Below are positions 8,884 through 31,159 of a stretch of DNA of 64,000 nt, piece after piece (the first letter of the stretch is position 1; the number at the start of each line of letters is the position of its first letter). Under the pieces are notes generated by a model, which had not been told where the DNA came from, ran no database searches, and saw only the letters and a program-made list of their open reading frames with translations. The stretch spans positions 24,444 through 88,443 of the forward strand of contig CAVRFZ010000025.1 of NCBI GenBank assembly GCA_963720655.1, in the 5' to 3' direction. Source of the DNA: an uncultured Acidobacteriota bacterium. Lineage in GTDB: Bacteria; Acidobacteriota; Terriglobia; Acidiferrales; UBA7541. The translations under genes were made by a program, and so were the position numbers.

Positions 8884-10371
8884 GTGGGCGCGTCGCACCT
8901 AGAATCGCGGCCTAAATCGCACAGGCCAGGCTCTGATTCGAGAATTAGTGCGATTCTCGCGGAGCCGCTAATAGCGGAGACAGCCATCACACCCGGTCCG
9001 GGTAGGCCCAAAATAGCGATTGTGGACGACGATGCCGGGTTGCGCGCAAAGATTGCGTCTGCTCTGCGTTCAGATTTTGAAGTTCTCGAAGGCGAGGACT
9101 ACGACGCAGCGGTAAAGTTGCTGGAAGAGCGAGAGTTGGATGTGTTGCTGTTGGGGTTGCCCATCGCGTCCGGCGGCGTGCGGGAGTGCACTGAGTTGTT
9201 GTCAAGGCTGGACGGAAGCAACATCGACACGCTCGTGATCGTGCTGAGTTCCGATGAAAAGAAATCCACCGCGCTGAAGGTCATCGACGCGGGCTCTTAC
9301 GACTACTTCATCAAGCCAATCGACACGGACGTGCTCCGGCACCTGCTCGAGCGCGCAGTCGAGAAGCTGCACATCCAGCGCGAGAACCGGCTGCTGCGCG
9401 AGGAAATCAGCCGGAAGAACGCGCTCGGCGATCTGATCGGGACAACGGACTCGATGCGGCATGTGTTCGACTCAATCAAGCGGATGGCCCGGGCGACGAC
9501 CAACGTGATAATTCGCGGAGAGAGCGGCGTCGGAAAAGAGCTGGTGGCCCGCGCCCTCCACGAGCAGAGCCCGCGGCGAAACCGCGCTTTCATCAGCGTA
9601 AATTGCGCGGCGCTGCCCGAGGGGCTAATGGAGGCTGAGCTTTTTGGGTACGAGAAGGGGGCCTTTACAGGAGCAGTGGGAACGAAAGAAGGCCGCGTGG
9701 AGCTGGCCCATCAGGGAACACTGTTCCTCGATGAGATTGCAACGTTGACGCCACCATTACAGAGCAAGCTACTGCGGGTGCTGGAGGACCGGTCGCTGAC
9801 GAGGTTGGGCGGAAAGAAGCAGATCAAGGTGGATTTCCGGCTAATCAGCGCGACGAACGAGGACCTGGAAGAGATGGTGCGGGACGACCGGTTCCGCGAG
9901 GACCTGTATTACAGGATCCATGTGGTGCCGATTTTCGTGCCCGCGTTGCGCGAACGGGTAGAGGATATCCCTGTGCTGGCGGAGTATTTCGTCAGCGTCT
10001 ATTGCGCGGCCAATAGCTTTCCGGCGAAGCGTATCGCCGACGACGCCATGCAAGCGTTAAAACGCTACCCGTGGCCGGGCAACGTGCGCGAACTGGAGAA
10101 TGCGATTCAGAGGCTGGTGATCATGACGGACGGAGAAACGATTGAGCTCAAGGATCTGCCGATCGACATCATGCAGGTAGTCAGCCGGGACAGGGGACGG
10201 GTTAGGCTGTCGGGAAACGGGATCAATCTGGACAGAGAGATCGAGGCCTTCGAGCGACGGTGGGTGCAGGAAGCATTGGAACAATCGAAACAGGTAAAGT
10301 CAGAGGCGGCACGACTGCTGGGTGTCGATCGGAACCGATTGAACTACCTGTGCCGTAAGTACAGCCTGTGA
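8884..10371 (+). CDS. sigma-54-dependent transcriptional activator (receiver-like domain + AAA+ + Fis-type HTH)
   Basis: Walker A GESGVGKE, sigma-54 contact loop GAFTGA, C-terminal HTH AARLLGVDRNRLNYLCRKY. The receiver-like N-terminus has DVLLLGLP where the phospho-Asp is expected. The start codon is uncertain. Confidence 0.9.
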   Translation: MGASHLESRPKSHRPGSDSRISAILAEPLIAETAITPGPGRPKIAIVDDDAGLRAKIASALRSDFEVLEGEDYDAAVKLLEERELDVLLLGLPIASGGVRECTELLSRLDGSNIDTLVIVLSSDEKKSTALKVIDAGSYDYFIKPIDTDVLRHLLERAVEKLHIQRENRLLREEISRKNALGDLIGTTDSMRHVFDSIKRMARATTNVIIRGESGVGKELVARALHEQSPRRNRAFISVNCAALPEGLMEAELFGYEKGAFTGAVGTKEGRVELAHQGTLFLDEIATLTPPLQSKLLRVLEDRSLTRLGGKKQIKVDFRLISATNEDLEEMVRDDRFREDLYYRIHVVPIFVPALRERVEDIPVLAEYFVSVYCAANSFPAKRIADDAMQALKRYPWPGNVRELENAIQRLVIMTDGETIELKDLPIDIMQVVSRDRGRVRLSGNGINLDREIEAFERRWVQEALEQSKQVKSEAARLLGVDRNRLNYLCRKYSL

Positions 10372-10430
10372 TCCGGGTCTGCTTGCACAGGAGACTGGTA
10401 TCCGTATTTGCACATGGTGAAAAATTCATT

Positions 10431-10450
10431 GGCGTTGAGTAAATCAACAC
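10431..10450 (+). promoter_or_regulatory. candidate enhancer (UAS) inverted repeat GGCGTTGAG-N4-TCAACAC
   Basis: GTTGA-N5-TCAAC palindrome about 100 nt upstream of the -24/-12 promoter at 10543. A related GCGTTGAA/TTCAAC set lies upstream of the second sigma-54 promoter. Confidence 0.35.
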
Positions 10451-10542: not shown

Positions 10543-10558
10543 TTGGCAACTTGATTGC
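10543..10558 (+). promoter_or_regulatory. sigma-54 (-24/-12) promoter
   Basis: TGGCAACTTGATTGCA matches TGGCAC-N5-TTGCA, with GG and GC exactly 12 nt apart. It lies 52 nt upstream of the peptide-1 ATG. Confidence 0.7.
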
Positions 10559-10609
10559 AAGATAGAAAGCATCGCCCCAGAGGGGCAACTTGAGAGGGAG
10601 AACAAAGAC

Positions 10610-10678
10610 ATGGCAAAGAAAACCTTGAAGAAGTCCAAGAAGCTCGAATCGACCAAGCCGTTGATCAGCCGCGGATAA
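10610..10678 (+). CDS. small Lys-rich peptide 1 (22 aa, MAKKTLKKSKKLESTKPLISRG)
   Basis: A GAGGGAG Shine-Dalgarno sits 9 nt upstream, a sigma-54 promoter lies upstream, and two hairpin terminators follow. It shares the KKLE..K.LI.R motif with two paralogs. The ORF is below the ORF-track size cutoff. Confidence 0.6.
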   Translation: MAKKTLKKSKKLESTKPLISRG

Positions 10679-10738: not shown

Positions 10739-10764
10739 AGGCCGCTCCTAGGAGCGGCCTTTTC
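10739..10764 (+). terminator. rho-independent terminator after peptide 1
   Basis: AGGCCGCTCC-TA-GGAGCGGCCT stem followed by TTTCC. It is preceded by a second hairpin, GTGCGCC-N9-GGCGCAC-TTT, at 10686-10711. Confidence 0.7.
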
Positions 10765-11003: not shown

Positions 11004-11099
11004 ATGAAGTCCAAACCGAAGCCAAAAACCCTTAAGAAGTCGACCAAACTCGAACCCTTGAAATCCCTCATCGTCCGCGCTCCTTGGGCCTCAAAGTAG
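11004..11099 (+). CDS. small Lys-rich peptide 2 (31 aa, MKSKPKPKTLKKSTKLEPLKSLIVRAPWASK)
   Basis: It is a paralog of peptide 1 (TLKKS.KLE..K.LI.R) with synonymous codon differences. An in-frame TAA lies 12 nt upstream of the ATG. The SD is weak (GGTG) and no clear promoter was found. Confidence 0.5.
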   Translation: MKSKPKPKTLKKSTKLEPLKSLIVRAPWASK

Positions 11100-11122: not shown

Positions 11123-11917
11123 CTATTTACCCCTCTTACGAGCCAAGTACATCGTTCGCAGACCTGTAGATACTCGTCGGTTGCTGGGGGGCGCGGCGAG
11201 ATCGCTAAAATCCAGAACACGAACTAGTTCCAGCCCAGCCTGCCTGAGGTGGCGGATTATATCGGCATGGGGCCACTCGATTTCTTCCAGCAGGTCATCG
11301 TGGCGCTCCCAAAGGTCCTTTCGACCACGAATGAACCAAGTTACTCGATTCCAGCCTTTACCCCTCTTGCGGTCGAATCCGCCGTGCTCGACTGCAAAGA
11401 AATTCGGTCCTTCACCATAATTGGTTATGGACCAGTGCTGTTCGTAAAGGAGCCGCTGGTGCAAATCGAAGTAGAAATAGCCCCCGGGACGAAGCGCGCG
11501 GGCAACGGCCCGGGCAACTTGAGCCAATTGGGAGCGGTTGGGCAGGTGATTTATCACGCCCCATTGCGAGCAAACCAGATCGACTGGCTCGGGAAGGCTG
11601 AAGGTGCGCATGTCCGCCCGCCAGACACGTACGCGGAGCCCCGTCGCGCGCACCTTCCCACGCGTGACGCGGCACATTTGTGGGGATAAATCGACGGCAT
11701 AGACTTTCAGGCCCCGTCGCGCGAAATCAATGGCAGCCGTGCCGCTTCCGCAGCCAAGCTCACACACGCTTTTGACTCCGGGAAGAATCGAACGGAGCAA
11801 TTTTTCCCGGTTGCGAACCCAAGACTTTTCATAGAGAGGCCAGATCTCGTCGTAAACGGGGCCTAGTTCGGCGTAGGTGTTCGGTTTTGGCGCGATCTTT
11901 GTGGATGGGCGGGGCAA
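11123..11917 (-). CDS. class I SAM-dependent methyltransferase
   Basis: Motif I VCELGCGSGTAAIDFA, then acidic D in VYAVDLSP, and motif-IV-like LVCSQWGVINHL. Confidence 0.85.
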   Translation of the reverse strand: MPRPSTKIAPKPNTYAELGPVYDEIWPLYEKSWVRNREKLLRSILPGVKSVCELGCGSGTAAIDFARRGLKVYAVDLSPQMCRVTRGKVRATGLRVRVWRADMRTFSLPEPVDLVCSQWGVINHLPNRSQLAQVARAVARALRPGGYFYFDLHQRLLYEQHWSITNYGEGPNFFAVEHGGFDRKRGKGWNRVTWFIRGRKDLWERHDDLLEEIEWPHADIIRHLRQAGLELVRVLDFSDLAAPPSNRRVSTGLRTMYLARKRGK

Positions 11918-11981
11918 CAGGGCTCCTAAACGAGCGCCCTTTATATCAGGGGAGCGTGATTTTGCCCACCGCTAAAGGGGC

Positions 11982-12028
11982 GGCGTTGAAACGTTGGATT
12001 TTTCAACAACATGAGCAAAATTCAACGC
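11982..12028 (+). promoter_or_regulatory. candidate enhancer (UAS) half-sites GGCGTTGAA / TTCAACAAC / TTCAACGC
   Basis: Inverted GCGTTGAA (11983) and TTCAACGC (12021), plus an internal TTCAAC (12003), lie 85-125 nt upstream of the sigma-54 promoter at 12110. Confidence 0.35.
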
Positions 12029-12109
12029 TTACTGAGCTCAAATCAGAGGGTAGGCGTGCGCCGCCGTGCCTAAGTGGTTTGATTTTAAGCCAGGAGAGGG
12101 AATTGTGTT

Positions 12110-12125
12110 TGGCGCGCGAATTGCA
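12110..12125 (+). promoter_or_regulatory. sigma-54 (-24/-12) promoter
   Basis: TGGCGCGCGAATTGCA has GG and GC exactly 12 nt apart. It lies 53 nt upstream of the peptide-3 ATG, the same geometry as at peptide 1. Confidence 0.7.
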
Positions 12126-12177
12126 CTTGCTCTGAACAAGCCCGGGCAGGGACGAGACCAAGAAAAAGGGACGAATC

Positions 12178-12288
12178 ATGAATCCAACCGCGAAGCCAGT
12201 AAAGAAAAACAAGAAAGTCGAGCCGGCAAAGAAGCTCGAGCGTAAAACACCGCTGATGTCCGTGCGCAGTCTCACGGTGAAGTGGTAG
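12178..12288 (+). CDS. small Lys-rich peptide 3 (36 aa, MNPTAKPVKKNKKVEPAKKLERKTPLMSVRSLTVKW)
   Basis: AAGGGA SD about 8 nt upstream, sigma-54 promoter upstream, two hairpins downstream, and the shared KKLE..K(T)PL motif. Confidence 0.6.
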   Translation: MNPTAKPVKKNKKVEPAKKLERKTPLMSVRSLTVKW

Positions 12289-12372
12289 GGGATTAAGTCG
12301 TCCCGAGATTTTAACGATCTTCCGACCTTGCGCTCCGCTAGGTCGGGAGTTTGAAGTAGCAGCAACCCCGAA

Positions 12373-12406
12373 GGGCCGCCGTCCCAGGAACGGCGGCCCT
12401 TTCTTT
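12373..12406 (+). terminator. rho-independent terminator after peptide 3
   Basis: GGGCCGCCG-loop-CGGCGGCCC stem followed by TTTCTTT. A further hairpin CCGACCT/AGGTCGG lies at about 12333-12357. Confidence 0.7.
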
Positions 12407-12429
12407 GTGACCGCGTCCAATCCCCACAA

Positions 12430-14577
12430 TCACCACCAAACCTGAGAACGCAACCAGTGCCAAGCGCTTCGACTCATCTGCCAGGCCAACGGCCTGCTCT
12501 TCGCTGTAATCTTGGCGACACCGGTCATCCCGGCGCTGAGTGAGCCGTCGGAGTTCGGAAATACCATCACGACGGCGAAGCGGTTAGTCAGTTCCTGCCC
12601 TAGTCGCGTTAGCTTTTGCGTGTCAGAGATGGGCGCATCGGTAGCGGCGGCGGGAAGAATCTGCTCCACATGGCCTGTGTAGGTGCGAAAAGCGTAGGGC
12701 AGAACTTTCACTCTTACAGGAGCACCGGCACGAATGTCGTTCAGATCGCGATCAGAGACGAAAATGCGCGCTTTCATCGTGCGAGCGTCAGAGAGGCGGC
12801 AGAATTCTTCGCCAGCGGCGAGAAACTGGCCGACTCGCTGGCGAATTTCGGAAGTTGTCACGATGCCGTCAAAGGGGGCGCGAATTTGTAGCGCGTCGAG
12901 ATTGGATGTGGCGACGGCGAGTTCTTTCTGAAGACGGATGCGTTCGCGCACGGACTGGGCAGACTTCCCGGATGCAGGCTGGTCCTGATTCTCTCGAAGG
13001 TTGCTGCTAGCCAAGGTGAGTTCGATGGTGGTCTTTCTGGCCTCCGCTTCAATCTCCGGGTTCTGCAGAACGGCGAGGAGTTGACCCGCCTTAACCTCTT
13101 GACCCTGGCGAACGAATACCTCTGAGATTGTTCCGGCAACTGAGGTGCGGAGATGCGCGGCCTTACCGGGCTCGAGGAGGAGTTCGGAGGAGACGCTGGT
13201 GGGGATAGGAGGCACGAATAAGAGCAAAGCGACTCCTAAGACGCCGAAAGTCTGAGCGCGCGTTAATCTCCAGGTCATGTAGGACCCCCCCTGTTTTCGA
13301 ATCCATGCGCGGGCGACAGGCACGGATGATTTGATCCCCTTTCGCGCGAAAAAATAAAGCACACCGGCAAACAAGAAATAGCCCCAGTCTCCGAACTTTG
13401 AGACGAGCACATTCTTCGCGAACAACAGGACCACGGCCAGCAGGGCGGCACTGTAGATGATTGCTGTGACGCCGAAAATGAAGAAGATTCGCCGGTGGCG
13501 GCGGCTGGAAGGAGGAAGATCAATATCCCGGCGAAAAATGTATTTCTGCGCCCAAACGCGCAGGAAAGCGAATGCGTCTTCGCGCAAGTTGTCGATATCG
13601 AGGAACTGCGAGAGGGCGTAATAACCATCGGCTTTGATGAGCGGATTCAGGTTTAAAACAGCGCCCTGTATGCCGCTGAGAAGCATCATCTTGTACGCCA
13701 AGTCACTAACGATAGTGCCGGGTGCGGTGAAGTGCCAGATCACGGCTGAAGTGCTGCAAAGAAGAAGCTCCACCCAGATGCCGGCGAAGATCACCCATTG
13801 GCGGCGTGAAGTGCGATCAAAGAGAAGGATATCTGTGGTGTCGGTATAAAAGGCGGGCGTCAGGTAGATCAGCAAAAACCCCATTTGGTGAACGTCGCCG
13901 CCGAAGTGCTTGCAGGTAAGCCCGTGGCCGAACTCGTGGACTGCGCCGAGCAGCAGAAGCAGGATCCAAAACGCCCACACATCGTAGGCGCTCTTTTCGG
14001 CGAAGGAATAAAGCGATGAAGTGTCGCGCTGCACCCGGCTCCAGTCGCCAGCTACAAAATAGGCCGCCGTGACAAACAGGAGGATGCAAAAAAACACGAA
14101 CTGAGTAGTGTAAATCCAGCTGAGATAAGGATCGAGCTTCGCGAGGGTTTTATTTGGGTCCCAGGCCTTGAAGCTGATGTATAGCATGCTGGACTGGTCG
14201 ACGCGGCCTTTGCGTTCGTCGCGGATGCGTTCAAGAACCGCGAGATTTTTTTCGCCCAGGGACCGTTCCCACATGGCGGGCTCAATTGAATCGAGAAATT
14301 CGAGAACTTCGGATTCCGCGATCGCAGAATCGGGGTCTTGTTCGGCGAGCGCCTCGGATATCTCGGCCGGTGTACGTGTTCCGTCGCACAGCAAAAGCAG
14401 CTGATATTCGAATTCACCGTAACGGTTGTAGGAATTGGTTTCGTAATTCTTGATGACGTAACTCTTTTCGCCATTCACGGTCTGTTCGCTGATGCGCAGA
14501 TCGGAGCGAAGCTTGGGGCGCCGCAATCCTTTGGAGAGGACGCTCGAGACCTGAATACTGGTGGGGCCAAAGCGCAT
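12430..14577 (-). CDS. triple-fusion protein: PqqD-like RRE domain + M50 site-2-protease membrane domain + HlyD-type periplasmic adaptor domain
   Basis: The N-terminus SYVIKNYETNSYNRYGEFEYQLLLLCDGTRTPAEISEALAE...VLEFLDSI is PqqD-like. HEFGHGLTCK (HExxH) and LNLNPLIKADGYY (NxxPxxxxDG) are M50 motifs within a multi-TM block. The C-terminus has a lipoyl-like hairpin (VAGTISEVFVRQGQEVKAGQLLAVL ... IRAPFDGIV). Confidence 0.8.
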   Translation of the reverse strand: MRFGPTSIQVSSVLSKGLRRPKLRSDLRISEQTVNGEKSYVIKNYETNSYNRYGEFEYQLLLLCDGTRTPAEISEALAEQDPDSAIAESEVLEFLDSIEPAMWERSLGEKNLAVLERIRDERKGRVDQSSMLYISFKAWDPNKTLAKLDPYLSWIYTTQFVFFCILLFVTAAYFVAGDWSRVQRDTSSLYSFAEKSAYDVWAFWILLLLLGAVHEFGHGLTCKHFGGDVHQMGFLLIYLTPAFYTDTTDILLFDRTSRRQWVIFAGIWVELLLCSTSAVIWHFTAPGTIVSDLAYKMMLLSGIQGAVLNLNPLIKADGYYALSQFLDIDNLREDAFAFLRVWAQKYIFRRDIDLPPSSRRHRRIFFIFGVTAIIYSAALLAVVLLFAKNVLVSKFGDWGYFLFAGVLYFFARKGIKSSVPVARAWIRKQGGSYMTWRLTRAQTFGVLGVALLLFVPPIPTSVSSELLLEPGKAAHLRTSVAGTISEVFVRQGQEVKAGQLLAVLQNPEIEAEARKTTIELTLASSNLRENQDQPASGKSAQSVRERIRLQKELAVATSNLDALQIRAPFDGIVTTSEIRQRVGQFLAAGEEFCRLSDARTMKARIFVSDRDLNDIRAGAPVRVKVLPYAFRTYTGHVEQILPAAATDAPISDTQKLTRLGQELTNRFAVVMVFPNSDGSLSAGMTGVAKITAKSRPLAWQMSRSAWHWLRSQVWW

Positions 14578-14589
14578 GGGTCGCGGTGC

Positions 14590-15528
14590 CTATGGTTTCG
14601 CTTTTGCAGTGCCCGGCCAAATCACATGTACAGCCATGCCGGGCCGCAAATCGGAAATTCCGGTTCCGACAAGCTGCGCGGTGACGTCGTAGCTGTCACT
14701 TGCGGGATCGACGGTGGGACTAACCTTCACCACGCGGGCTGAAAACGTGCGGCCGGAATTATCGACAAGCGAGAGATCGACGGGCGCGCCACGCTCGGGA
14801 CGCCTGGGGGAAGCTTCGGAAACCTGAAATTGGACCTGAAGGGGCGAAAGCTGGCTGATGCGAAAACACTTGTCATTCTTGGCCACCGTCTGACCTTCAC
14901 GAACATAGCGGCGCACGACGACACCGCTGAATGGGGCGCGCAGTCGGGTTTGGTCCAGTTGAATTTCGAGGCGATGAATTTCCGAATGGCTGCTTTCGAC
15001 CAGGGCTTGCCATCCATGCATATCGTATTCGGCGCCTTTTGCTTCAAACTCGGCGGCTTCCAGATCGGCTTCGCTTGAAAGCCCATATTCACGCAGCTGC
15101 TGTTGGCGTCTTAGAGCCGCGGCTTTGGCCTTGAGCTCGGCCTCTTTGAATTTCACGTTATTCTCGGCAACGGTGAGATCGTTGCGGGCCTTGTTGAGCT
15201 CCATCTGAAGGCTGCGGTCATCGAGCTGCCCTAGAATTTCACCGGCTTTGACGGCGCTGCCTTCGTCTTTCGCGAGGGAGGTGACGACACCGTCGCGCTC
15301 GGCAGAGAGATCCACTTGGTGCTCCACGGAGAGCACGCTGAGAACGTCGTTTGGCTCAGGAGGCTTGACGGTGGCGGTTGGTCCCGGCGGTTGTGACGGT
15401 CGCGAAGGCACGGCCGAAGACGGAGGTGGAGCGGCAGAAGTGGAATCCGGCGCGTGAGAAGAATCGCCACAGCCCGCCAGCGCGAGCGCCAAAGTTACGA
15501 TTGGAAGATACGTTGAACGTCTCATCAT
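14590..15528 (-). CDS. HlyD-family periplasmic adaptor lipoprotein
   Basis: Lipobox LALAGCGD, a Pro/Ser-rich linker, then barrel-sandwich and coiled-coil motifs (AERDGVVTSLAKDEGSAVKAGEILGQLD ... LRAPFSGVVV). Confidence 0.8.
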   Translation of the reverse strand: MMRRSTYLPIVTLALALAGCGDSSHAPDSTSAAPPPSSAVPSRPSQPPGPTATVKPPEPNDVLSVLSVEHQVDLSAERDGVVTSLAKDEGSAVKAGEILGQLDDRSLQMELNKARNDLTVAENNVKFKEAELKAKAAALRRQQQLREYGLSSEADLEAAEFEAKGAEYDMHGWQALVESSHSEIHRLEIQLDQTRLRAPFSGVVVRRYVREGQTVAKNDKCFRISQLSPLQVQFQVSEASPRRPERGAPVDLSLVDNSGRTFSARVVKVSPTVDPASDSYDVTAQLVGTGISDLRPGMAVHVIWPGTAKAKP

Positions 15529-15546
15529 GTCCCCTGCCCCTTCAGC

Positions 15547-17976
15547 TTACGGAAGCCAGCTCCAGACCTTCTGCCAAATCCAGCGAAATGGATCACGAAA
15601 TAGTGCGTAGCCTATCGGGTACCATCCGGTATGGAACCATTCGAGCGGGCCGCCTGCGGCGCGGATGCGAACGCGGCCAACCATTCCGTCGCGAGCGCGC
15701 CCGCCGGAATTCGAAAAGAGAGCGCGTACTAGAAAGTATTGGTCCCCAGCATCGGAATGAGTTTGAGCGCCGATACGATCGACGGTCCCGAAGAATGTTG
15801 CCGTCGGGAAGGCATTGAGCTTAAGGGCGACTTCCTTGCCAGGATGGACGAGGGCCAAATCCGTTTCAGGCACGCTCATTTCGGCGGCCATCCGTTCCTG
15901 GTCGACGATCTCGGCGAACGGATCTCCTGCCTTGACCATCACGCCAGTTTTCTCTTCAATTTTCGGCGTCACAACCACACCAGCAATCGGCGCACGAAGA
16001 TCCGCAGAGGCGACGCGCTGCTGTTCGAGTTTCACTTCGGCAGCATGAAGGTCGGCGCGCATTTTGGCTTGTCCTGCGGCCGATGGATCGTTACGAAATT
16101 CCGCTTCCGCAATTTCACGGCGAGCCTGCGCGAGAGCGGCTTCGGCTTGGGCAAGCTTGATGCGATCTTCGCTGTCGTCAAGCTGGGCAAGAGATTGGCC
16201 CGGCTGCACAGTTTCGCCTTCGCGAACGAAAACGTGCCGCACGACTCCGCCTTCGATCGAGCTAACAATGCGGCGCTCAGCGGGGACCACGGTAGCATCC
16301 GTACGCACGCGCACAGGCCATGGCACCAGAATAAGAATGGCGGCAACAATGGCGGCGCGCTCAGCATATAGGCGCCAGCGCTCCTTCGGCATCGCGGCAG
16401 CCAGGCGCTTTTTCTGTTCGGCAAGCGGCTGGAAAATATTCGCGAGCGGAACCTGCTGATAAAGCTGCGCATTGCGGATTGCAACAGTCGTCTGGTTGGC
16501 GAGAATCGAGACAGTCTCTTTGTTGGCGTCGGTGAGGAAGTCTGCGTCGCTGCTAAGAAGTATCATCGCGCCAAGAACGCCCTGATCGTCGCGCAGCGGC
16601 AAGGCATACGTGCCGTTGAGCTCGTAGGCTTCGAGGTATGAAACGAGCTGCGCGCGAGCATCTTCCGGATCGGCGTGCCAGCCATCGTCGTATTTATCGA
16701 CGGCGACGGGGCCTTCCTGCTGGGATACCCATTCCAGCCGGTCGCGCAGTTCGCTCATCTCGCGCGTTTTTGGAACCTCCGCTTCGCCCGAGACGGCGCC
16801 AAGAACGAATTTACGCCGATCGAAAAAGCCGATGACTAATTTGTCGAACGGAACTACGGAGGCGGCTTGCTGGGCGACAGTGGAAAGAACGTGATCGAGG
16901 TCCAGCGTGGATGTGATTTCCTGCGAAATTTTTAGAAGAGCGTCAAGGGCGTAGACCTTACGTTCGGATTCAAGAAGATTCGCATTGTGCAAGGCGACAG
17001 CAGCCTGCTCGCTGATGCTTTCGAGGAAAAAAAGATCTTCTTCGTTAAAGGGAGTGCCGTCTGCTTTGTTCACCAGCTCGACGATGCCGAGAACCTCGTT
17101 TTCCTTTCGTAGCGGCGCCGCCATCCACGACTCGATCTCGAATTCTCCGCCAGCCTTGATGCGCTCTTCGAGACCCGGTTCTTCCGATGGCGTTTCAAGG
17201 AGCTTCGGATTTCCCGCCTGGGCAATTTCACCGAGCAGCCCTTCGCTCGCGGAAACACTCGCACCTTGCTCCACCGTCGGATCCACTCCTGCGGTATTGG
17301 CCAGACGAAGTTCGTCTCCCGCCGCGAGCCACAGATTGCAGCCCTCAGCTCCGAGAATGTCTTTGATTTTGCCGGCGACGATGGGCAGCAGCTCTTCTAA
17401 CTCGAGTGTGGATGTGAAGGTGCGGCCAAGGTCGTAGAGAGCAGTGAGGCGTTCGAGAGTTGCGAGCTGGGCGTGGCGCTCGCCTTCTATAGCTTCGAGA
17501 TTCGTGAGAGCCTGGCCTGCAAGCCGCGCCGCTTCTTCGAGAAAATGCGCGTCTTGCTCTGTAAAGTTCCCGGCTCTCTTGTTCAGGACCTCGACCACGC
17601 CTTCGGGCCCTTCGACGCCGGGAAGGGAGGCAAACATTGCAGATTTGACGCGGACCCGGCTCGTCTCCTCCAGATGCTCGAGATCATCAAGCGACAGATC
17701 CTGCGCGCTAAGGCGGCTGGTGCTTGCCGACTCAAACACGATGGCGAGAGGACCTTCAGTGACCGGTTCGCTGGAGGGCACAATCCGCTCGCCGGTTTCG
17801 GTCCAGCGCGTACGGCATGCAAGCCCTTCCGATTCAGAATCGTGAATCCACACGAATACGGCGCGCGCTCCGAGCGTGGTGCCCACGCGAGCGGCAAACG
17901 TCTTCAAAAGCGTGTCCTGATCGCGACACGCTAGAGACACGCTCGCGAGTTCGAAGAGCGCCGAAGATGTTTCCAT
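15547..17976 (-). CDS. GAF-domain (about 3 copies) - TM - HlyD-type adaptor fusion protein
   Basis: The start is set at METSSALFEL with a GGGAGA SD. About 520 cytoplasmic residues carry repeated GAF-like units. A single TM (AAIVAAILILVPWPV) follows, then HlyD motifs (IEGGVVRHVFVREGETVQPGQSLAQLD ... LRAPIAGVVV). Confidence 0.8.
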   Translation of the reverse strand: METSSALFELASVSLACRDQDTLLKTFAARVGTTLGARAVFVWIHDSESEGLACRTRWTETGERIVPSSEPVTEGPLAIVFESASTSRLSAQDLSLDDLEHLEETSRVRVKSAMFASLPGVEGPEGVVEVLNKRAGNFTEQDAHFLEEAARLAGQALTNLEAIEGERHAQLATLERLTALYDLGRTFTSTLELEELLPIVAGKIKDILGAEGCNLWLAAGDELRLANTAGVDPTVEQGASVSASEGLLGEIAQAGNPKLLETPSEEPGLEERIKAGGEFEIESWMAAPLRKENEVLGIVELVNKADGTPFNEEDLFFLESISEQAAVALHNANLLESERKVYALDALLKISQEITSTLDLDHVLSTVAQQAASVVPFDKLVIGFFDRRKFVLGAVSGEAEVPKTREMSELRDRLEWVSQQEGPVAVDKYDDGWHADPEDARAQLVSYLEAYELNGTYALPLRDDQGVLGAMILLSSDADFLTDANKETVSILANQTTVAIRNAQLYQQVPLANIFQPLAEQKKRLAAAMPKERWRLYAERAAIVAAILILVPWPVRVRTDATVVPAERRIVSSIEGGVVRHVFVREGETVQPGQSLAQLDDSEDRIKLAQAEAALAQARREIAEAEFRNDPSAAGQAKMRADLHAAEVKLEQQRVASADLRAPIAGVVVTPKIEEKTGVMVKAGDPFAEIVDQERMAAEMSVPETDLALVHPGKEVALKLNAFPTATFFGTVDRIGAQTHSDAGDQYFLVRALFSNSGGRARDGMVGRVRIRAAGGPLEWFHTGWYPIGYALFRDPFRWIWQKVWSWLP

Positions 17977-18603: not shown

Positions 18604-19422
18604 ATGCGTGCTTCGGAATGGATCCAAATCGCTTTTGCAATTGGGATTGGTTTGCTGGCGTGGACGCGACCCCTGGAAAAGCGACGGCGATTGCGCATTG
18701 CAAAGCTTGCCGTCATCGTGCCGGCGGCGATCTTAGGGGCACGATTTGCCTTTCACGGATTCGCGGGCTCCTTAGTGCGCGATTGGCTCCCGGCTGCGCT
18801 GTTGCTCATTCCTTACTGGCAAGCGGGGCAATTTTTTACCGGTCCCGACGAACGAATTCAGAACTGGCTGGCGCAAACAGACGAGAAAGTGTTGCGCGTG
18901 CTCCAACGGACAATCGGAAGCAACGAGAATGGGGGATGGGCCAGATATTTTGAAACAGCCTACCTGATGTGCTATCCGTTGGTGCCGATCGGACTGGCGA
19001 CTCTGTATCTGGGACATCACCGTGCGGCAGCCGATTTCTACTGGATCGTCGTCGTCTTAGCGAGCGACATCTGCTTTGCCGTCACGATTTTTGTTCCAGC
19101 CATGCCGCCTCGTTTGGTTCCTGAGCAAACTGGTGACTTCCGCGTGGCCGCGAATGAGGTTCGCAAGCTGAATTTAGAAGTCCTGAATCGCGGCAGCATT
19201 CAGGCCATCACGTTCCCGAGCGCGCACGTGGCGTCAACAATGGCGGTGGCGCTGGTGCTGACGCGATTCTTGCCGACGACCGGCGCGATATTCGTCGTTG
19301 TCGCAGTGAGCATCGCGCTCGGCGCGTTTCTCGGCCGCTACCATTACTTTCTCGACGTAGCGCTGGGCGCGATAGAAGCGGTGATTATTTTTCTGGTGTG
19401 CGTGCTGGTATTTCGACCGTAG
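18604..19422 (+). CDS. PAP2-superfamily-like integral membrane protein
   Basis: Six or more TM helices. FPSAHVAS and GRYHYFLDVALGA resemble the PSGH and SRxxxxxHxxxD motifs of PAP2 phosphatases and transferases. Confidence 0.55.
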   Translation: MRASEWIQIAFAIGIGLLAWTRPLEKRRRLRIAKLAVIVPAAILGARFAFHGFAGSLVRDWLPAALLLIPYWQAGQFFTGPDERIQNWLAQTDEKVLRVLQRTIGSNENGGWARYFETAYLMCYPLVPIGLATLYLGHHRAAADFYWIVVVLASDICFAVTIFVPAMPPRLVPEQTGDFRVAANEVRKLNLEVLNRGSIQAITFPSAHVASTMAVALVLTRFLPTTGAIFVVVAVSIALGAFLGRYHYFLDVALGAIEAVIIFLVCVLVFRP

Positions 19423-19442: not shown

Positions 19443-20108
19443 CTAACGGCGGTCGAGAGCGGGGTGGCGGACGTCGCGGCCGGCAACAAAGTAGATAACG
19501 TCCTCGGCGATGTTCGTGGCGTGGTCGCCAATGCGCTCGAGATTCTTGGCAACGAGAATCAGCTCGAAAGCGGCAAACACCACCGCAGAATTTTCCATCA
19601 TGTAAGTAAGCAACTCGCGAAAGAGCTGATCACGCAAGCGATCCACCTGGTCGTCGCGCTGAAGAACGCTGCGGGCAAGATCAATATCGCCGCGGACCAG
19701 CGCATTCAAGCTATCGCGCACCATCCCTTCGGCGAGTTCGCTCATGCGGGGCAGATCGACGTAAGGCTTTACCTGGGGATGGCGCAGAACGCGCATCGCG
19801 GACTGCGCGATGTTGACGGCCTGATCGCCGATGCGTTCGAGGTCGCCGTTAATACGCGAGACCGCCAAGAGAAAACGCAGGTCGGCAGCCATCGGTTGCT
19901 GCAATGCGAGCAGCCGCTGTACGCGCTCGTCAATTTCGATCTGCATTTCATTGATCGCATCTTCTTCGCTAAGCACAATTTCAGCGAGGTGTTCTTCGGC
20001 GTCCAACACGGCGTGCACAGCCTGGTGTACCGCGCGCTCGGCCAGACTTCCCATCCAGAGCAGACGCTGCTTCAGTTCTTCGAGGTCGCGTTCAAAATGG
20101 CGTTCCAT
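19443..20108 (-). CDS. phoU: phosphate signalling complex protein PhoU
   Basis: Two PhoU repeats, each with E(D)xxxD motifs (INGDLERIGDQAVNIA, VAKNLERIGDHATNIAEDV). It lies immediately downstream of pstB. Confidence 0.9.
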   Translation of the reverse strand: MERHFERDLEELKQRLLWMGSLAERAVHQAVHAVLDAEEHLAEIVLSEEDAINEMQIEIDERVQRLLALQQPMAADLRFLLAVSRINGDLERIGDQAVNIAQSAMRVLRHPQVKPYVDLPRMSELAEGMVRDSLNALVRGDIDLARSVLQRDDQVDRLRDQLFRELLTYMMENSAVVFAAFELILVAKNLERIGDHATNIAEDVIYFVAGRDVRHPALDRR

Positions 20109-20166
20109 GTAATCTCAGTCCCCTTCACTCGAAAGCCGGAAACCGGGCCCAAAGCAGCACAGAGAA

Positions 20167-21006
20167 TCATCCGAAACGGCCGGTGATGTACGCTTCTGTG
20201 CGCGGGTCGGTCGGCGTTGTAAACAGTTTCGAAGTCTCGCTGTGCTCGATCAGTTTTCCGTCCAGCATGAACGCGGTGAAATCGCTGGCGCGCGCTGCCT
20301 GTTGCATGTTGTGCGTCACAATGGCCATCGTGCAGCTGTCTTTGAGCTGGAACATCAACTCCTCGATTTTGGCCGTGGTTACGGGATCGAGAGCGGAGCA
20401 CGGCTCGTCGAGCAAAAGAACTTCAGGATCGACAGCGAGAGCCCGCGCGATGCAAAGGCGCTGCTGCTGCCCGCCAGAGAGCGCAAAGGCCGACTTCTTG
20501 AGGTAGTCTTTCACTTCTTCCCACAGGGCAGCGCGACGCAAGCTTTTTTCCACGAGATCGTCGAGGCGTCCTTTGAAGCCATTCACCCGCAAGCCGTAGG
20601 CCACATTCTCGTAGATGGATTTGGGAAATGGGTTCGGCCGCTGGAACACCATGCCAACCCGGCGGCGCAGTCCGACCACATCCATTCCGTGAATATCTTG
20701 CTGGTCGAGCAAGATTTCGCCCTGCACACGGGTGTTCCGGATTGTTTCGTTCATGCGGTTGAGGGTACGCAGAAACGTCGACTTGCCGCAGCCCGATGGT
20801 CCAATTAGCGCGGTAATCTTGTTGGTCGGAATGTTCAAATTGAGACCGAAGACCGCCTGTTTGGGTCCATAGAAGACGTCGAGGTTCGAAATCTTAAAAC
20901 GCAACGGTGAGCTTTTTTCGGAACCCGTTGGTGTCGGCTCGGTCATCCGGACCTCCGTCGCAATCCGCTCAGCGGCGGGATTCTTTCCTTGAGTTGCTGA
21001 TGCCAT
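20167..21006 (-). CDS. pstB: phosphate ABC transporter ATP-binding protein
   Basis: Walker [10 protein letters not shown], signature [14 protein letters not shown], Walker B LLLDEP. The start is taken at MASATQ, 1 nt after the pstA stop. Confidence 0.9.
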
Positions 21007-21007
21007 G

Positions 21008-21862
21008 TCATACGCTCCGAGCATTGCCGCCGCGATTCAGGGCAAGACGGCAACCAAGATTTGCGAGGAGGACGAGTGCTAAGAGAACCAGGCCAGCGGC
21101 CCAAGCTTGGCGGTGCCAATCATCATAAGGCGCAATCGCATAGGTGTAAATCATCACCGGAAGCGAAGCGATTGGCTGGGACCATCCCGGACTCCAATAG
21201 CGATTGCTGAAGGCGGTGAACAGCAACGGAGCCGTTTCTCCGGCTACGCGCGCCAATGCCAGCAGCATACCGGTCAGAATTCCACCACTCGCAGCCGGCA
21301 GCACTACGGTGGCGATTGTCTTCCACTTGCTGGCGCCCAAAGCCATTGCGCCTTCGCGGAGAGTTCCCGGAATCGCTCGCAGAAACTCTTCCGTGCTGCG
21401 GACCGTAATCGGAATCACCATTATTCCCAAAGCGAAACCGCCGGCGAGAGTTGAGAAATGTTTCACGGGAAGCACAACCAGTGAGTACGCGAATATGCCG
21501 ATGACGATAGACGGCACACCGTTGAGCAAGTCCGTGGTGTAGCGAATCACGAAGGAAAAAGTCTGGCCGCCGAATTCCGCGAGGTAGACGCCGGCCATCA
21601 GACCGACCGGCAAACCGAGAACGGCGGCGAGCAACAAAAGCTTCAGGCTGCCGACGATGGCGTTGGCCATTCCTCCGCCCGTCTCACCGACGGGTTTTGG
21701 CAACTGCGTGAAGAAATTCCAATTGAGCGATGCACCACCATGCCAGATCAGATAACCGAGGATCAGGAACAAGACGGAGACGACCGATAAAGCAGCCACA
21801 CCCGTAAGGGTTAGCATTATGACGTTGAGGGATTTTCGCCACATTAAGAGCGCGCGGTTCAT
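21008..21862 (-). CDS. pstA: phosphate ABC transporter permease PstA
   Basis: Six-TM permease with an EAA-like loop ([14 protein letters not shown]). Position within the pstSCAB order supports the call. Confidence 0.9.
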
Positions 21863-22857
21863 GCGGGACGTCCTCCGCCGCGCTCAGTTGCCACGATCAG
21901 AATTCGAGCGAGACCATTCAGGATGAACGTCATCAGAAACAGGACGAGACCGAGTTCGATCAGCGCGCTCAGGTAAAGATCGCCGGTTGCTTCCGTGAAT
22001 TCATTGGCGATTACAGCGGCGATTGTGTAGCCCGGATGGAGAAGCGAGGCGCTGATCTTCGGGTCGTTGCCGATGACCATCGTGACGGCCATCGTTTCCC
22101 CGAGCGCACGCGCGAGGGCGAGGAATATCGAGCCCATAATTCCCGTCCGAGCCCACGGAACCACCACCTTCCATGTGGATTCCCACCGCGTGGCGCCCAG
22201 TGCGAGGGCTGCTTCGCGCTGCTCGCGCGGAACCGTCAGCAACACTTCGCGTGACACGGAAATAATGAACGGGACCACCATAATAGCCAGCACAATTCCC
22301 GCCGTAAAGAATCCCACTCCGTAGTTCGGCCCCGCAAATAGCTTTCCTATTCCTGGAAGTTTTCCAAGAGTGTTGATGAGAAGAGGACCGAGCCAGGAGC
22401 GCATCAGCGGAACGACTACGAAGATGCCAAGCAATCCGTAAATGACGCTGGGAACGGCAGCGAGCAGGTCGATCAGGAACGAAACAGCGTCACTGATTTT
22501 TCGCGGCGCAAGCTCAGAGAGAAAGATCGCGCTTGCGAGCCCGAGCGGGACCGCAAGCGCGAGTGCAACCACGGACGTCACAAGCGTCCCATAGATAAAC
22601 GGAGCTGCTCCGAAATTGTCGAAAATCGGGTCCCAGGTTGTCGTCCAAAAAAAGTGCCAACCGAATTTGGCGCGGGAAAGGTGGGAGTTCACCCACAATT
22701 CCCAAACCAGCATGGAGGTAATAAGAAGAATCGCAGCGGCGAAAGTGAGCGTAATAAGGTGAGCCATTTCATCGCCGTGCTGGAATCGCCGAACGAACGA
22801 ACGCGGCCCCGAATAGGGAGGAGCCGCGTGCGGAATCGTGGTGGCCGGTGATGTCAT
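21859..22857 (-). CDS. pstC: phosphate ABC transporter permease PstC
   Basis: Permease with an EAALALGATRWE loop. Its stop overlaps the pstA start by 4 nt. Confidence 0.9.
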   Translation of the reverse strand: MTSPATTIPHAAPPYSGPRSFVRRFQHGDEMAHLITLTFAAAILLITSMLVWELWVNSHLSRAKFGWHFFWTTTWDPIFDNFGAAPFIYGTLVTSVVALALAVPLGLASAIFLSELAPRKISDAVSFLIDLLAAVPSVIYGLLGIFVVVPLMRSWLGPLLINTLGKLPGIGKLFAGPNYGVGFFTAGIVLAIMVVPFIISVSREVLLTVPREQREAALALGATRWESTWKVVVPWARTGIMGSIFLALARALGETMAVTMVIGNDPKISASLLHPGYTIAAVIANEFTEATGDLYLSALIELGLVLFLMTFILNGLARILIVATERGGGRPA

Positions 22858-22858
22858 G

Positions 22859-23878
22859 CTACTGGATGAGCGAAATGGCCTTCATTTCCTTTTCGACTAC
22901 CGGTTTGGGCAGGCGAGCGTAAGCGAGACCTTCATTATATCCCTGTCCATCCGTCAGCATCCATTTCAGGAAACCCTTGATCGCATCGCGTTTCGTGGCA
23001 TCCGAGATTTGCGCCGGGATCAAGAGCCATGTAAAGCTGGAAACGGGATACACGGTCGGGCCGGGTTCGTTCGTGATCGACACGCGAAAGTCGGCCGGCA
23101 TGTCTTTCGCCGCCGCCGCTGCCGCGGCAGTGACGCCCGCCAAGTCCGCTTTCACAAACTTCCCGGAAGCGTTCTGAACCTTTCCGAAAGTGATGCCATT
23201 CTGAACGGCATAGATGAGTTCCACATATCCGACCGAACCGGGCGTTTGCTTTACGAGGCCGGATACACCTTCGTTTCCCTTGCCGCCCAGCCCAACTGGC
23301 CACTGCACGGATGTACCTTTACCGACTTTGTTCTTCCAGTCGTCGCTTACCTTGGAAAGGAAATCCGTCCAGATGTAGGACGTACCGCTGCCATCCGCCC
23401 GGTGAACAACGACGATATCGCTTGCCGGCAGATTCACTCCCGAATTTGCCTTGGCAATTTCCGGGTCATTCCATTTTGTGATTGTCCCCAGATAGATACC
23501 GGCCAGTGCTTTCTGAGTGAAGTTCAATTCCCCCGACACTCCAGCGACGTTGTAGATCGGAATCACGGCACCAAGTACGGTGGGGAAATGCAGAATCTTG
23601 AATTTTGCTTCTTTCAACTGGTCATCGGTCATCGGCCCGTCAGAGGCGCCGAAGTCTACTGTGCCGGCGAGAAGCTGGCGGATTCCGCCGCCTGAGCCAA
23701 TCGACTGGTAGTTAATCTGAACGTTGGGGTCCTTCTGGTGGTAAACATCAAACCACTTGGAGTAAATGGGATACGGGAAGGTGGCGCCTGCGGCATTCAG
23801 CAATATCGTGCCGGGGTGCGCTGCAACTGCAATTGCGAGAGCCAACAGGATCGACAGAACGAGAGAAGTCTTCTTCAT
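22859..23878 (-). CDS. pstS: phosphate-binding protein PstS
   Basis: Signal peptide, then GATFPYPIYSKW, GSGGGIRQ and SDGPMTD motifs of PstS. Confidence 0.9.
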   Translation of the reverse strand: MKKTSLVLSILLALAIAVAAHPGTILLNAAGATFPYPIYSKWFDVYHQKDPNVQINYQSIGSGGGIRQLLAGTVDFGASDGPMTDDQLKEAKFKILHFPTVLGAVIPIYNVAGVSGELNFTQKALAGIYLGTITKWNDPEIAKANSGVNLPASDIVVVHRADGSGTSYIWTDFLSKVSDDWKNKVGKGTSVQWPVGLGGKGNEGVSGLVKQTPGSVGYVELIYAVQNGITFGKVQNASGKFVKADLAGVTAAAAAAAKDMPADFRVSITNEPGPTVYPVSSFTWLLIPAQISDATKRDAIKGFLKWMLTDGQGYNEGLAYARLPKPVVEKEMKAISLIQ

Positions 23879-23918
23879 GGTGGCAGTACTCTCCTTAGGA
23901 GCGTATCTTTTGTCGGGA

Positions 23919-23940
23919 TTGTTACAGCTGCGTTACATAC
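23919..23940 (-). promoter_or_regulatory. candidate Pho box upstream of pstS
   Basis: The minus strand reads TGTAAC-GCAGC-TGTAAC (direct repeat, 11-nt period), 43-59 nt upstream of the pstS ATG. Compare the E. coli CTGTCAT-N4-CTGTCAT arrangement. Confidence 0.45.
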
Positions 23941-24210
23941 ACAACAATTGGAAGTGAAATAGGAAAAGCTCCTCTGCAAAAAAATGAGGAGGCGCGGCCC
24001 CGGGGGTTGTCCAGGCCGCGCCTCCTTGGTGGGCGCAGGTCGTAGACTGCATTTTCCAGCGCAAAATGCTGTTGCGCCAGAACTTGTCAAGCCGAACCCA
24101 TCAGCCGCCCGCGACAGAAGTCTTATCGTCGCATCCGTCCGGCTACAAAATCGATGGCGCAGCGTAGGCGCTCGTGTTCACTGCCGGATGACCGATGCGT
24201 GAAAAAACTG

Positions 24211-24915: not shown

Positions 24916-25050
24916 GTTGCGTTCCTCCCAGGGCCCTATGGGTATGCGCCCAGCCGTATCTTTTTCCAGCCACTACATGATTAGGGGCGGATGTTGCAAG
25001 AGGTTGAATCCGTCGTGAATGTTTCGAGACCGCGGAAGTAGGGGGGCCGG

Positions 25051-27547: not shown

Positions 27548-27852
27548 AGTTTTCTCTCTTTGGACGCCCTCAACATACGGGAAACACAGTCCCCGAAGCA
27601 AGCTGACGCTTGTAGCATCTTTTGATTAACGGATTGTTAAGAGCAGTTCCTCGGCTTCTGTTCCATTCTTACTCAGCCAGCTTCAAGAAACATCCTCAAG
27701 CCTTCCCATTTCGGTGCAGTTAGCTGAGACGATTTCGCCGTCCATTCCCCCCTGCAAGATCCTTTCGCGAACGTGGAGAGCCACCCAAATCCCTCGAAGC
27801 AGTGCGATGCCGATTCTCCAACCTGCCGATAAAAGGTGCAGGGGAGGCGTTT

Positions 27853-31125: not shown

Positions 31126-31159
31126 AGAGGAGTGAAAGCGATTTAGGCCGGGACAAACC

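Follow-up and report, generated by a model that had tools for sequence, protein, structure and literature searches.

A triple-GAF adaptor protein of Acidobacteriota, its conserved partnership with an adaptor-fused M50 protease, and a proposed role in peptide export

The 64,000-nucleotide stretch analysed here (the window) comes from an uncultured Acidobacteriota bacterium (contig CAVRFZ010000025.1, positions 24,444 to 88,443 of the forward strand). On its minus strand, at 15547..17976, it carries a gene for an 809-aa protein in which three GAF domains are joined through a single transmembrane (TM) helix to a periplasmic adaptor of the HlyD type. This gene is not a chance fusion: it is conserved across loci, always in the company of a short HlyD lipoprotein and of an M50 metalloprotease that itself ends in a HlyD adaptor. 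We propose that the protein is the sensory adaptor subunit of a conserved three-adaptor envelope machine that processes and exports peptides, a reading to which we give about an even chance. The domain architecture, the topology, the linkage of the genes across phyla, a family of small peptides and its sigma-54 promoters carry the argument; from these we infer that the peptides would be the cargo, that the machine would export them and that the GAF array would act as its gate.

The gene was delimited from its open reading frame (ORF) and translation, its Pfam and NCBIfam matches and a comparison with full-length orthologues. On the minus strand the reading frame runs without a stop from 18060 to 15547, and the ATG at 17976 is preceded by a GGGAGAG ribosome-binding site. 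All 27 aligned orthologues, 806–829 aa in length, share the same Met-Glu (M-E) start. Because the shared start and the ribosome-binding site coincide, we place the gene at 15547..17976; a longer form beginning with TTG at 18060 was rejected for the same two reasons. A plus-strand ORF in this interval was likewise rejected, as the plus-strand translation is riddled with stops. Two peptide strings quoted in an earlier, sequence-only reading of this DNA, IEGGVVRHVFVREGETVQPGQSLAQLD and LRAPIAGVVV, lie at aa 574–600 and aa 660–669 of the minus-strand product.

Hundreds of full-length relatives exist at 71–96% identity, mostly in metagenome-assembled genomes (MAGs) of 'Candidatus Acidiferrales' and other Acidobacteriota. 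Public names of the close relatives are generic: 'GAF domain-containing protein' or 'RND family efflux transporter MFP subunit'. When 1.84 billion representatives were searched exhaustively with HMMER, a diverse wider family at 22–57% identity with the same architecture emerged. It comes in two forms, one with three GAF domains (~800 aa) and one with two (~640 aa) that lacks GAF1.

How secure is the assignment of three GAF domains? The sequence-only reading had described the N-terminus as repeated GAF-like units, three in number, and a check of this count with hidden Markov models (HMMs) bears it out. Pfam finds three GAF stretches in the whole protein (PF01590, E 8.7e-34). When each N-terminal third was scanned alone, all three copies separately exceeded the gathering threshold (22.4 and 28.6 bits for the two GAF models): GAF1 (17506..17916, minus strand, aa 21–157; PF01590, 36.5 bits alone), GAF2 (16990..17403, minus strand, aa 192–329; PF01590, 60.2 bits alone) and GAF3 (16477..16905, minus strand, aa 358–500; PF13185, 34.3 bits, and 33.1–34.3 bits alone). 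No PilZ domain was matched by Pfam in the protein; its N-terminus is made up of the three GAF domains. An AlphaFold2 (AF2) model with a predicted local distance difference test (pLDDT) score of 75 overall gives the GAF domains ~80–90, with strands and helices in the expected order, and shows three GAF folds linked by long helices at aa 140–187, 312–356 and 483–507. By Foldseek, the array matches the GAF domains of PDE2A, PDE5 and CyaB2 with a probability of 1.00 (E 2e-15). The best PDB sequence match of GAF2 is 5w10_A (E 1.6e-14), and 1mc0, the GAF-A/B pair of PDE2A, aligns over aa 68–326 (E 1.2e-11).

GAF1 and GAF2 each retain four of the five positions of the NKFDE signature: N132, K133, F138 and D142 followed by A in GAF1, and N303, K304, F310 and D314 (N-K-x5-F-x3-D) followed by L in GAF2. 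These eight residues are invariant in 28 orthologues, and GAF3 lacks the motif. GAF1 is the least conserved of the three (in the distant alignment its occupancy is 0.67 and its pairwise identity 21%) and is the domain missing from the two-GAF members. At least two GAFs are nevertheless kept across phyla, and within the order the three GAFs are 73–77% identical, compared with 76% for the adaptor domain. The best-conserved segments family-wide are the GAF2–GAF3 linker helix and the helix after GAF3, at 52% versus ~30% for the domains; GAF3 is thus flanked by the conserved helices ISxEITSTLDLD and ILANQxTVAxRNAxLYxxVP. In known tandem-GAF proteins the connecting helices form a dimeric signalling spine, and their conservation here fits the transmission of a signal to the TM helix. 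The cytoplasmic GAF region as a whole is strongly acidic, with a net charge of −43 and a pI of 4.5.

A single TM helix (16312..16368, minus strand, aa ~537–555) follows the array, in a hydrophobic segment at aa ~536–556. This segment is the sole Kyte-Doolittle window above 1.4, and AF2 models a helix at aa 531–550. A juxtamembrane stretch rich in Lys and Arg, with a net charge of +4, precedes the helix, and the protein has no N-terminal signal peptide. Because of this basic sequence before the lone TM helix and the missing signal peptide, we place the GAF domains in the cytoplasm and the C-terminal 250 aa in the periplasm.

The periplasmic part is an adaptor of the HlyD or membrane fusion protein (MFP) type (15682..16296, minus strand), in which HMMs, AF2 and Foldseek identify a lipoyl domain, an alpha-hairpin (aa 602–656) and a beta-barrel. 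HlyD_D23 scores 78.5 bits (E 5.8e-22) and HlyD_3 69.4 bits (E 5.1e-19). TIGR01730 (RND_mfp) is passed with 97.1 bits against a cut-off of 94.9, TIGR01843 (type_I_hlyD) reaches only 78 bits against 208.65, which puts the protein outside the type I secretion HlyD subfamily, and the models for specific efflux-adaptor equivalogs all score far under their cut-offs. Structural matches are to MacA, AcrA and EmrA, and PDB sequence matches to HlyD (8dck_C) and EmrA (4tko). The hairpin is short (2 x 25 residues in the AF2 model), and a canonical RLS TolC-contact motif was not seen at its tip on inspection by eye. The sequence-only reading had one TM helix leading into a full periplasmic HlyD adaptor. 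The single hydrophobic segment, the HMM scores and the structural matches agree with the first part of this description; the word full does not hold, as the membrane-proximal (MP) domain is absent. In its place the AF2 model ends in a Trp-rich amphipathic helix (..FRWIWQKVWSWLP; 15556..15615, minus strand, in a tail at 15550–15624; helices at aa 788–807), in which R798, W801, W805 and P809 are invariant among the aligned orthologues. The M50-HlyD partner closes with a similar tail, ..AWHWLRSQVWW (12433–12495, minus strand), and in both fusion proteins the Trp-rich tail takes the place of the MP domain. Distant M50-HlyD homologues end in ..DLWI, ..DLWL or ..PDFW.

Two further genes lie downstream on the same strand, separated by gaps of 12–19 bases. 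The first (14590..15528, minus strand) encodes a short HlyD/RND_mfp adaptor lipoprotein of 312 aa with the lipobox LALAGC (TIGR01730, 153 bits). The second (12430..14577, minus strand) encodes a 715-aa protein that NCBIfam models and the Pfam models M50 and HlyD_3 divide into a domain resembling a recognition element (RRE) of ribosomally synthesised peptides that undergo post-translational modification (RiPPs), an M50 metalloprotease, a TM segment and a HlyD part. Its protease motifs are HEFGH at 214–218 and NPLIKADGYY at 311–320. The first ~420 aa span positions 3–371 of the 379 in NF041824 (daptide_HExxH), at 184 bits against a cut-off of 300; NF058609 (YydH/LiaK) scores 51.5 bits against 225. 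Judged by these alignments, the protein is related to the intramembrane metalloproteases of daptide- and YydH-type RiPP systems and is not a member of them. The last 270 aa form the third HlyD adaptor of the operon. The Joint Genome Institute (JGI) name for the protein is 'putative peptide zinc metalloprotease protein'.

The first ~100 aa of M50-HlyD are probably an RRE peptide-recognition domain, to go by weak profile matches and the predicted fold. The RRE-like region covers aa ~23–100, for which Pfam PqqD gives 18.1–20.8 bits (its cut-off is 23.4) and TIGR03859 an E value of 9e-4. AF2 predicts strands at 28–34, 37–44 and 49–54 followed by three helices (beta3-alpha3) with a pLDDT of ~80. 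When the PDB was searched with a profile, PaaA and TbiB1, both RRE proteins, came out on top, at only E~1 (1.1). A Foldseek search with the M50-HlyD model gave matches to adaptors alone and so has no bearing on the RRE-like domain.

Is this arrangement peculiar to the window? We scanned one genome per GTDB species with a profile built from 12 family sequences. At least 599 stretches matched the pattern, at least 565 of them encoding a relative, and the results given here come from the best 80, all in bins of Acidobacteriota origin or in probable mis-bins; counts out of 82 add two loci obtained separately. Metagenomes were approached from the other side, through the M50-HlyD protein; here the best 80 loci were taken, and the 38 contigs with at least 3.4 kb of upstream DNA were informative. 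The gene order GAF-HlyD, short HlyD, M50-HlyD is kept in 80/80 genome loci and in the two others wherever the DNA reaches, and in all 80 the short HlyD gene sits between the two fusion genes. Conversely, a full GAF-HlyD gene is present in 38/38 informative metagenome loci. Four operon copies of 56–95% identity (L005, L013, L068 and L070) carry Dormiibacterota, Binatus or Cybelea labels in the public assemblies, probably through binning errors.

Breadth beyond Acidobacteriota rests on nine hand-picked distant loci, whose proteins are 22–34% identical and whose bins include Magnetococcales, Thermodesulfobacteriota and Sericytochromatia. M50-HlyD and the short HlyD stand beside GAF-HlyD in eight of the nine; in seven of these eight, M50-HlyD matches the window protein by BLAST at E 1e-73 to 1e-117, and the eighth was judged from gene sizes alone. 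The contig of the ninth, from Sericytochromatia, ends too early to show M50-HlyD. With M50-HlyD adjacent in 80/80, 38/38 and 8/9 loci, the co-occurrence that the sequence-only reading had proposed to survey is borne out, and no random occurrence of homologues was seen. In total, relatives occupy several hundred genomic sites, and no fewer than four phyla have the module. A gene of the outer-membrane efflux protein (OEP)/TolC family lies within the cluster at four distant loci (L083, L084, L086 and L169). Wherever the genes of a locus were listed, none inside the cluster encodes an ABC, RND or MFS transporter; in L168 a MacB-type permease gene lies 2.5 kb upstream of the module, with thiC in between.

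What might such a machine handle? Between the M50-HlyD gene and that of a sigma-54 activator lie three small ORFs on the activator's strand (plus): peptide 1 (10610..10678, 22 aa, MAKKTLKKSKKLESTKPLISRG), which fits the family consensus, peptide 2 (11004..11099, 31 aa, MKSKPKPKTLKKSTKLEPLKSLIVRAPWASK, with a ..RAPWASK tail) and peptide 3 (12178..12288, 36 aa, MNPTAKPVKKNKKVEPAKKLERKTPLMSVRSLTVKW). Across the related loci (L001–L082) we counted 124 Lys-rich small ORFs on the activator's strand, 1–5 per locus and 20–60 aa long, with a mean net charge of +9. They share the leader MAKKTLKKSKKLExTKPL (..KK[LI]xxxKPL; the Lys-rich sequence is MAKKTLKKSKKLESTKPL), which is followed by a hypervariable tail of 3–32 aa. 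Some tails repeat a [KR]PL[ML] motif, as in VKPLMSQRPLSSVRPLLRAN. Orthologues of peptide 3 with the ..SLTVKW tail occur in L005, L010, L038 and L059, and orthologues of peptide 2 with the RAPW tail in L001, L005, L007, L008, L059, L073 and L075. The peptides match no Pfam or NCBIfam family, and the window has no Rfam match. Because a conserved leader is combined with a variable tail and multiple paralogues, we liken them to precursors of secreted peptides; on this pattern they are probably the cargo of the machine in Acidobacteriota.

Promoters of the sigma-54 type precede peptide 1 (TGGCAACTTGATTGCA, 10544..10559, plus strand) and peptide 3 (TGGCGCGCGAATTGCA, 12110..12125, plus strand), the latter at a spacing that recurs across loci. 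Only one other near-consensus sigma-54 promoter occurs in the 64 kb; no recognisable one was found in the window for peptide 2. The element TGGC-N8-TGC[AT], ending 44–56 nt before the ATG, precedes 86 of the 124 peptide genes, compared with 1.05% of background windows. A scan that started from the promoter found promoter plus small ORF in 67 of 73 loci and also recovered diverged peptides absent from the first screen. Strong hairpin terminators lie downstream of peptides 1 and 3: a GC-rich one at 10739..10760, and one at 12378..12397 that is common to the convergent peptide 3 and M50-HlyD genes. The activator itself (8884..10371, plus strand) is an enhancer-binding protein of the REC-AAA+(sigma-54 interaction)-HTH type (Sigma54_activat, E 2e-69; Response_reg; HTH_8). 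Its gene adjoins the module on the peptide strand in 76 of 82 loci, and it likely activates the peptide genes.

Palindromes of the form GTTGAA-n-TTCAAC were seen by eye ~100–130 bp upstream of the sigma-54 promoters, at ~10430–10450 and ~11983–12010 in the window and at ~16905–16925 and ~15990–16010 in L001. As sequence elements they may be candidate sites of the adjacent enhancer-binding protein. A SAM-dependent methyltransferase gene (11123..11917, minus strand) lies among the peptide genes, with a 45–65% identical homologue in ~10 of 82 loci. This gene and a PAP2 gene (18604..19422) were considered as core parts of the system and rejected, each being present in only a minority of loci.

In the distant loci, ORFs with leader-like N-termini adjoin the module in four cases: a low-complexity protein of 1,666 aa in L084 (MPVIKKQKMKVVPKKAEKLEDRIAP, ..KLEDRIAP), an ORF of 195 aa in L167 (..ESLEDRIAP), an ORF of 46 aa in L168 (..EELEDRVSP) and an ORF of >1,100 aa in L086 (KAKKKGVRVEKLDEIVAP, ..KLDEIVAP). 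The motif suggests a shared, putatively cleavable N-terminal address tag on these ORFs and on the peptides. Low-complexity proteins rich in Pro, Gly or Gln and without a Pfam match adjoin the module in L084 (9472–12385), L086 (1–3149, minus strand), L083 (2759–4810), L169 (2–562) and L167 (3572–4159). Several have a Lys-rich N-terminus, a motif like ..LEDRIAP or both, and such neighbours may be large cargo of the same machine.

Genes for class III cyclases, CRP-like regulators or PilZ proteins stand beside the module in four of the nine distant loci. CRP-like regulators that bind cyclic nucleotides adjoin it in L086 (5685–6407) and L168, class III cyclases, one with FHA and GAF domains, in L167 (9410–11449) and L168, and a PilZ protein gene in L084 (8723–9037); the L168 genes lie at 11819–12526 and 13079–15899.

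How could these parts work together? The machine would consist of the triple-GAF-TM-HlyD protein, the short HlyD lipoprotein and the RRE-like/M50/HlyD protease, with a TolC-like factor encoded in the clusters of other phyla. Its cargo would bear at the N-terminus a Lys-rich leader that closes with KLE(A/D)(T/R)x(x)P; in the window this would be the three small peptides, two with sigma-54 promoters, under the REC-type enhancer-binding protein. After capture of the leader on the cytoplasmic side, the M50 domain would cut it, and the freed C-terminal part would leave through a periplasmic duct built from three kinds of HlyD domain and an outer-membrane factor. The membrane potential opposes the export of a cationic peptide; the Lys-rich leader would therefore be expected to remain in the cell, with the tail alone released. 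The GAF array, dimerised and stiffly coupled to the TM helix by its conserved connecting helices, would be the cytoplasmic input: a change of GAF state on a small ligand or an occupied leader would pass through the conserved helix and the TM segment to the adaptor, and would thereby control assembly or opening of the duct.

Two known cases offer a precedent. HlyD needs its short cytoplasmic N-terminus, to which cargo binds, for the recruitment of TolC (PMC4446572; PMC8277102), and the alginate system depends on the PilZ domain of Alg44, which binds c-di-GMP (PMC4436075). Adaptors that lack an MP domain and have an N-terminal TM helix serve inner-membrane partners that take cytoplasmic cargo (PMC4446572), and the protein described here, which shares both traits, fits this class.

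Ligand-gated assembly or opening of the export apparatus had been suggested by the sequence-only reading. The architecture and topology beneath that suggestion were right, and gating remains a supposition; the reading did not mention that the operon lacks an energised transporter, nor did it note the sigma-54 control or the genes that are likely to encode the cargo. From the sequence features, gating by a ligand of the GAF array is plausible, and a cyclic nucleotide would be our best guess for that ligand. Support is indirect: the conserved linker and post-GAF3 helices, the likeness to the tandem GAFs of PDE2A, PDE5 and CyaB2, which are regulated by cyclic nucleotides, and the cyclase, CRP and PilZ neighbours in four distant loci.

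Several observations weigh against the proposed machine. Its chief weakness is the energy source: no ATPase or proton-driven transporter is linked to the module, which is felt most for the 1,100–1,700-aa candidate cargo of L084 and L086. No ABC, RND or MFS transporter lies in or beside the operon, which holds only two more HlyD proteins, and there is no OEP gene among the 32 window ORFs scanned. The RRE assignment is sub-threshold, with PqqD under 23.4 bits and PDB matches at E~1. A search of the distant loci turned up no Lys-rich peptides, so that the link to cargo is one of neighbourhood and a short motif; a combined scan for Lys-richness and motif found only the 1,666-aa protein of L084. 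The NKFDE motif is present in non-binding GAFs too, so that the NKFDE-like residues here are not diagnostic of binding. No conserved ligand-binding residues were identified in the GAF domains, whose invariant positions are mostly Gly, Pro and hydrophobic residues. Finally, the AF2 models have a predicted template-modelling (pTM) score of 0.33–0.34, which makes their inter-domain geometry unreliable.

Could the GAF array instead be a docking or chaperone platform for cargo? The acidic GAF domains would then hold the Lys-rich leader and hand it over to the RRE-M50 protease, much as the N-terminus of HlyD engages its cargo. The charges would suit such an encounter, −43 and pI 4.5 on the cytoplasmic region against an average of +9 on the peptides, and in HlyD it is the cytoplasmic domain to which cargo binds and which sets off the recruitment of TolC (PMC4446572). 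The lack of conserved polar pocket residues, and a GAF number that varies between two and three in a module that is otherwise kept, would also be accommodated. An acidic pI is, however, common among cytoplasmic proteins, and the leaders of L167 and L168 are acidic, not basic. GAF domains do not commonly bind peptides, conservation is strongest in the connecting helices and not on domain surfaces, and the RRE-like domain already supplies a site for the leader. We regard docking as a serious alternative, though a rather unlikely one.

A further possibility is that the module is not an exporter but a device for regulated intramembrane proteolysis and signalling, in which M50 cleaves at the membrane, the HlyD domains serve as periplasmic scaffold or sensor and the GAFs report the cytoplasmic state. 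M50/S2P proteases are classic in signalling, no transporter gene is present, and the module is linked to a sigma-54 activator of the response-regulator type. Yet OEP/TolC genes lie inside the cluster at four distant loci, three TolC-type adaptor domains with hairpins are hard to account for without a conduit, and hypervariable tails in multiple paralogues fit secreted products. Such a device is, in our judgement, improbable.

Alternatively, the GAFs could be degenerate structural or dimerisation modules without input, which would leave the protein as an adaptor with a bulky cytoplasmic anchor. Many GAFs in the databases have no known ligand; here a ligand-specific motif was not found, and GAF1 is poorly conserved and dispensable. 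Against degeneration, the three GAFs are as well conserved within the order as the adaptor, at least two are retained across phyla, and the helices that would transmit a signal are under the strongest constraint. We consider degenerate GAFs quite improbable. Least credible of all, and rejected here, is an ordinary drug or metal efflux adaptor for an RND, ABC or MFS pump encoded elsewhere: the TIGR01730 score just over its cut-off and the automatic name 'RND family efflux transporter MFP subunit' speak for it, but the specific efflux models score far below theirs, the MP domain always present with pumps that have large periplasmic domains (PMC4446572) is absent, and in none of ~130 loci is a pump gene adjacent, while the M50-HlyD partner invariably is.

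Among the closest known systems is Alg44 of Pseudomonas, which the sensory adaptor proposed here resembles in design. Like our protein, Alg44 combines a cytoplasmic sensor of the second-messenger type, a single TM helix and a periplasmic MFP-like domain of an envelope-spanning complex. The PilZ domain of Alg44 binds c-di-GMP, and mutation of its motif abolishes alginate production (PMC4436075). Unlike our protein, Alg44 has PilZ in place of three GAFs, a glycosyltransferase as partner in place of an M50-adaptor fusion, and polysaccharide in place of a presumed peptide or protein cargo; the resemblance is one of design only, upon a shared MFP fold. HlyD, EmrA and MacA share the N-terminal TM anchor, lipoyl domain, hairpin and beta-barrel, but HlyD-type adaptors have a cytoplasmic part of ~60 aa compared with ~530 aa of GAFs here and work with ABC or MFS partners, and the present system has three adaptor proteins.

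The tandem GAFs of PDE2A, PDE5, PDE6 and CyaB2 provide the best sequence and fold matches, with long connecting helices and the N-K..F...D residues of GAF1 and GAF2. In contrast to these enzymes, which have catalytic output, our protein leads to a TM helix and an adaptor, has three GAFs and lacks the final E of NKFDE; its binding of a cyclic nucleotide is a prediction from such resemblance. The daptide protease (NF041824) and YydH/LiaK (NF058609) families resemble M50-HlyD in aligning over the whole model and in the HExxH and NxxPxxxxDG motifs, and differ in the sub-cut-off scores, the HlyD fusion and the lack of conserved modification enzymes in the cluster. Peptidase-containing ABC transporters (PCATs) with HlyD-like accessory proteins export bacteriocins with double-glycine leaders. 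The logic is similar (small peptides with leaders, a leader protease within the inner-membrane component, an adaptor), but PCATs use a C39 protease, an ABC ATPase and a GG leader, compared with M50, no ATPase and a Lys-rich ..KLExTKPL leader in the machine proposed here.

Every domain of the protein thus belongs to a known family, and the design of sensor, TM helix and adaptor has a precedent in Alg44. What is new is that a HlyD adaptor carries a tandem-GAF input, that its obligatory partners are an M50 protease fused to an adaptor and yet another adaptor, and that leader-bearing peptides, the predicted cargo, are associated with it under sigma-54 control. We found no description of GAF-fused or M50-fused adaptors in full-text literature searches, where a preprint on TMcin proved unrelated, or in adaptor reviews (PMC4446572, PMC8277102), and the same reviews call the cytoplasmic parts of adaptors poorly understood.

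Other parts of the window deserve brief mention. A phosphate-uptake block (19443–27601, minus strand) lies directly upstream of the operon, as it does in L001 and most close loci, with PhoU 91–100% identical. It reads PhoU, PstB, two permeases and PstS, then a PhoR/PhoB-like pair (from the sequence and comparison with L001; PhoU by tblastn, the pair by Pfam). A signalling cluster (29101–38100, plus strand) encodes a TonB-dependent receptor, a YfiR/HmsC-like protein, a CHASE8-PAS histidine kinase, a REC-REC-Hpt protein, a MASE1-PAS histidine kinase and a REC-GGDEF diguanylate cyclase. Further on, a histidine kinase (44249–46207, plus strand) has an N-terminal ETR1_N match (E 7e-41) followed by PAS domains, as in sensors of the ethylene-binding type.

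What would the family mean for bacterial secretion? In tripartite pumps and type I systems, adaptors are usually regarded as passive or transporter-driven connectors. This family would offer a genetically tractable case of a signalling module wired straight to an adaptor, and also one in which the inner-membrane partner is a protease and not a pump. Carried to its furthest extent, the proposal would make GAF-HlyD the second-messenger gate of an unrecognised, widespread secretion and maturation machine: an RRE-guided M50-adaptor fusion would replace the ABC, RND or MFS motor, three HlyD-type proteins would form the duct to a TolC-like channel, and the cargo, from 20 aa to >1,000 aa, would carry a cleavable ..KLE(D/A)(R/T)xxP leader. 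We advance this extended version only tentatively, and it is somewhat doubtful that the wider system will turn out to represent a novel type of secretion machine. Were export without an ATPase or a proton-driven pump confirmed, it would be a new bacterial secretion mechanism. Soil Acidobacteriota, in which the family is abundant, are a group about whose secreted peptides and cell-cell signals almost nothing is known; with candidate cargo and a dedicated activator at hand, hypotheses of peptide signalling or of bacteriocin-like competition become testable in this phylum.

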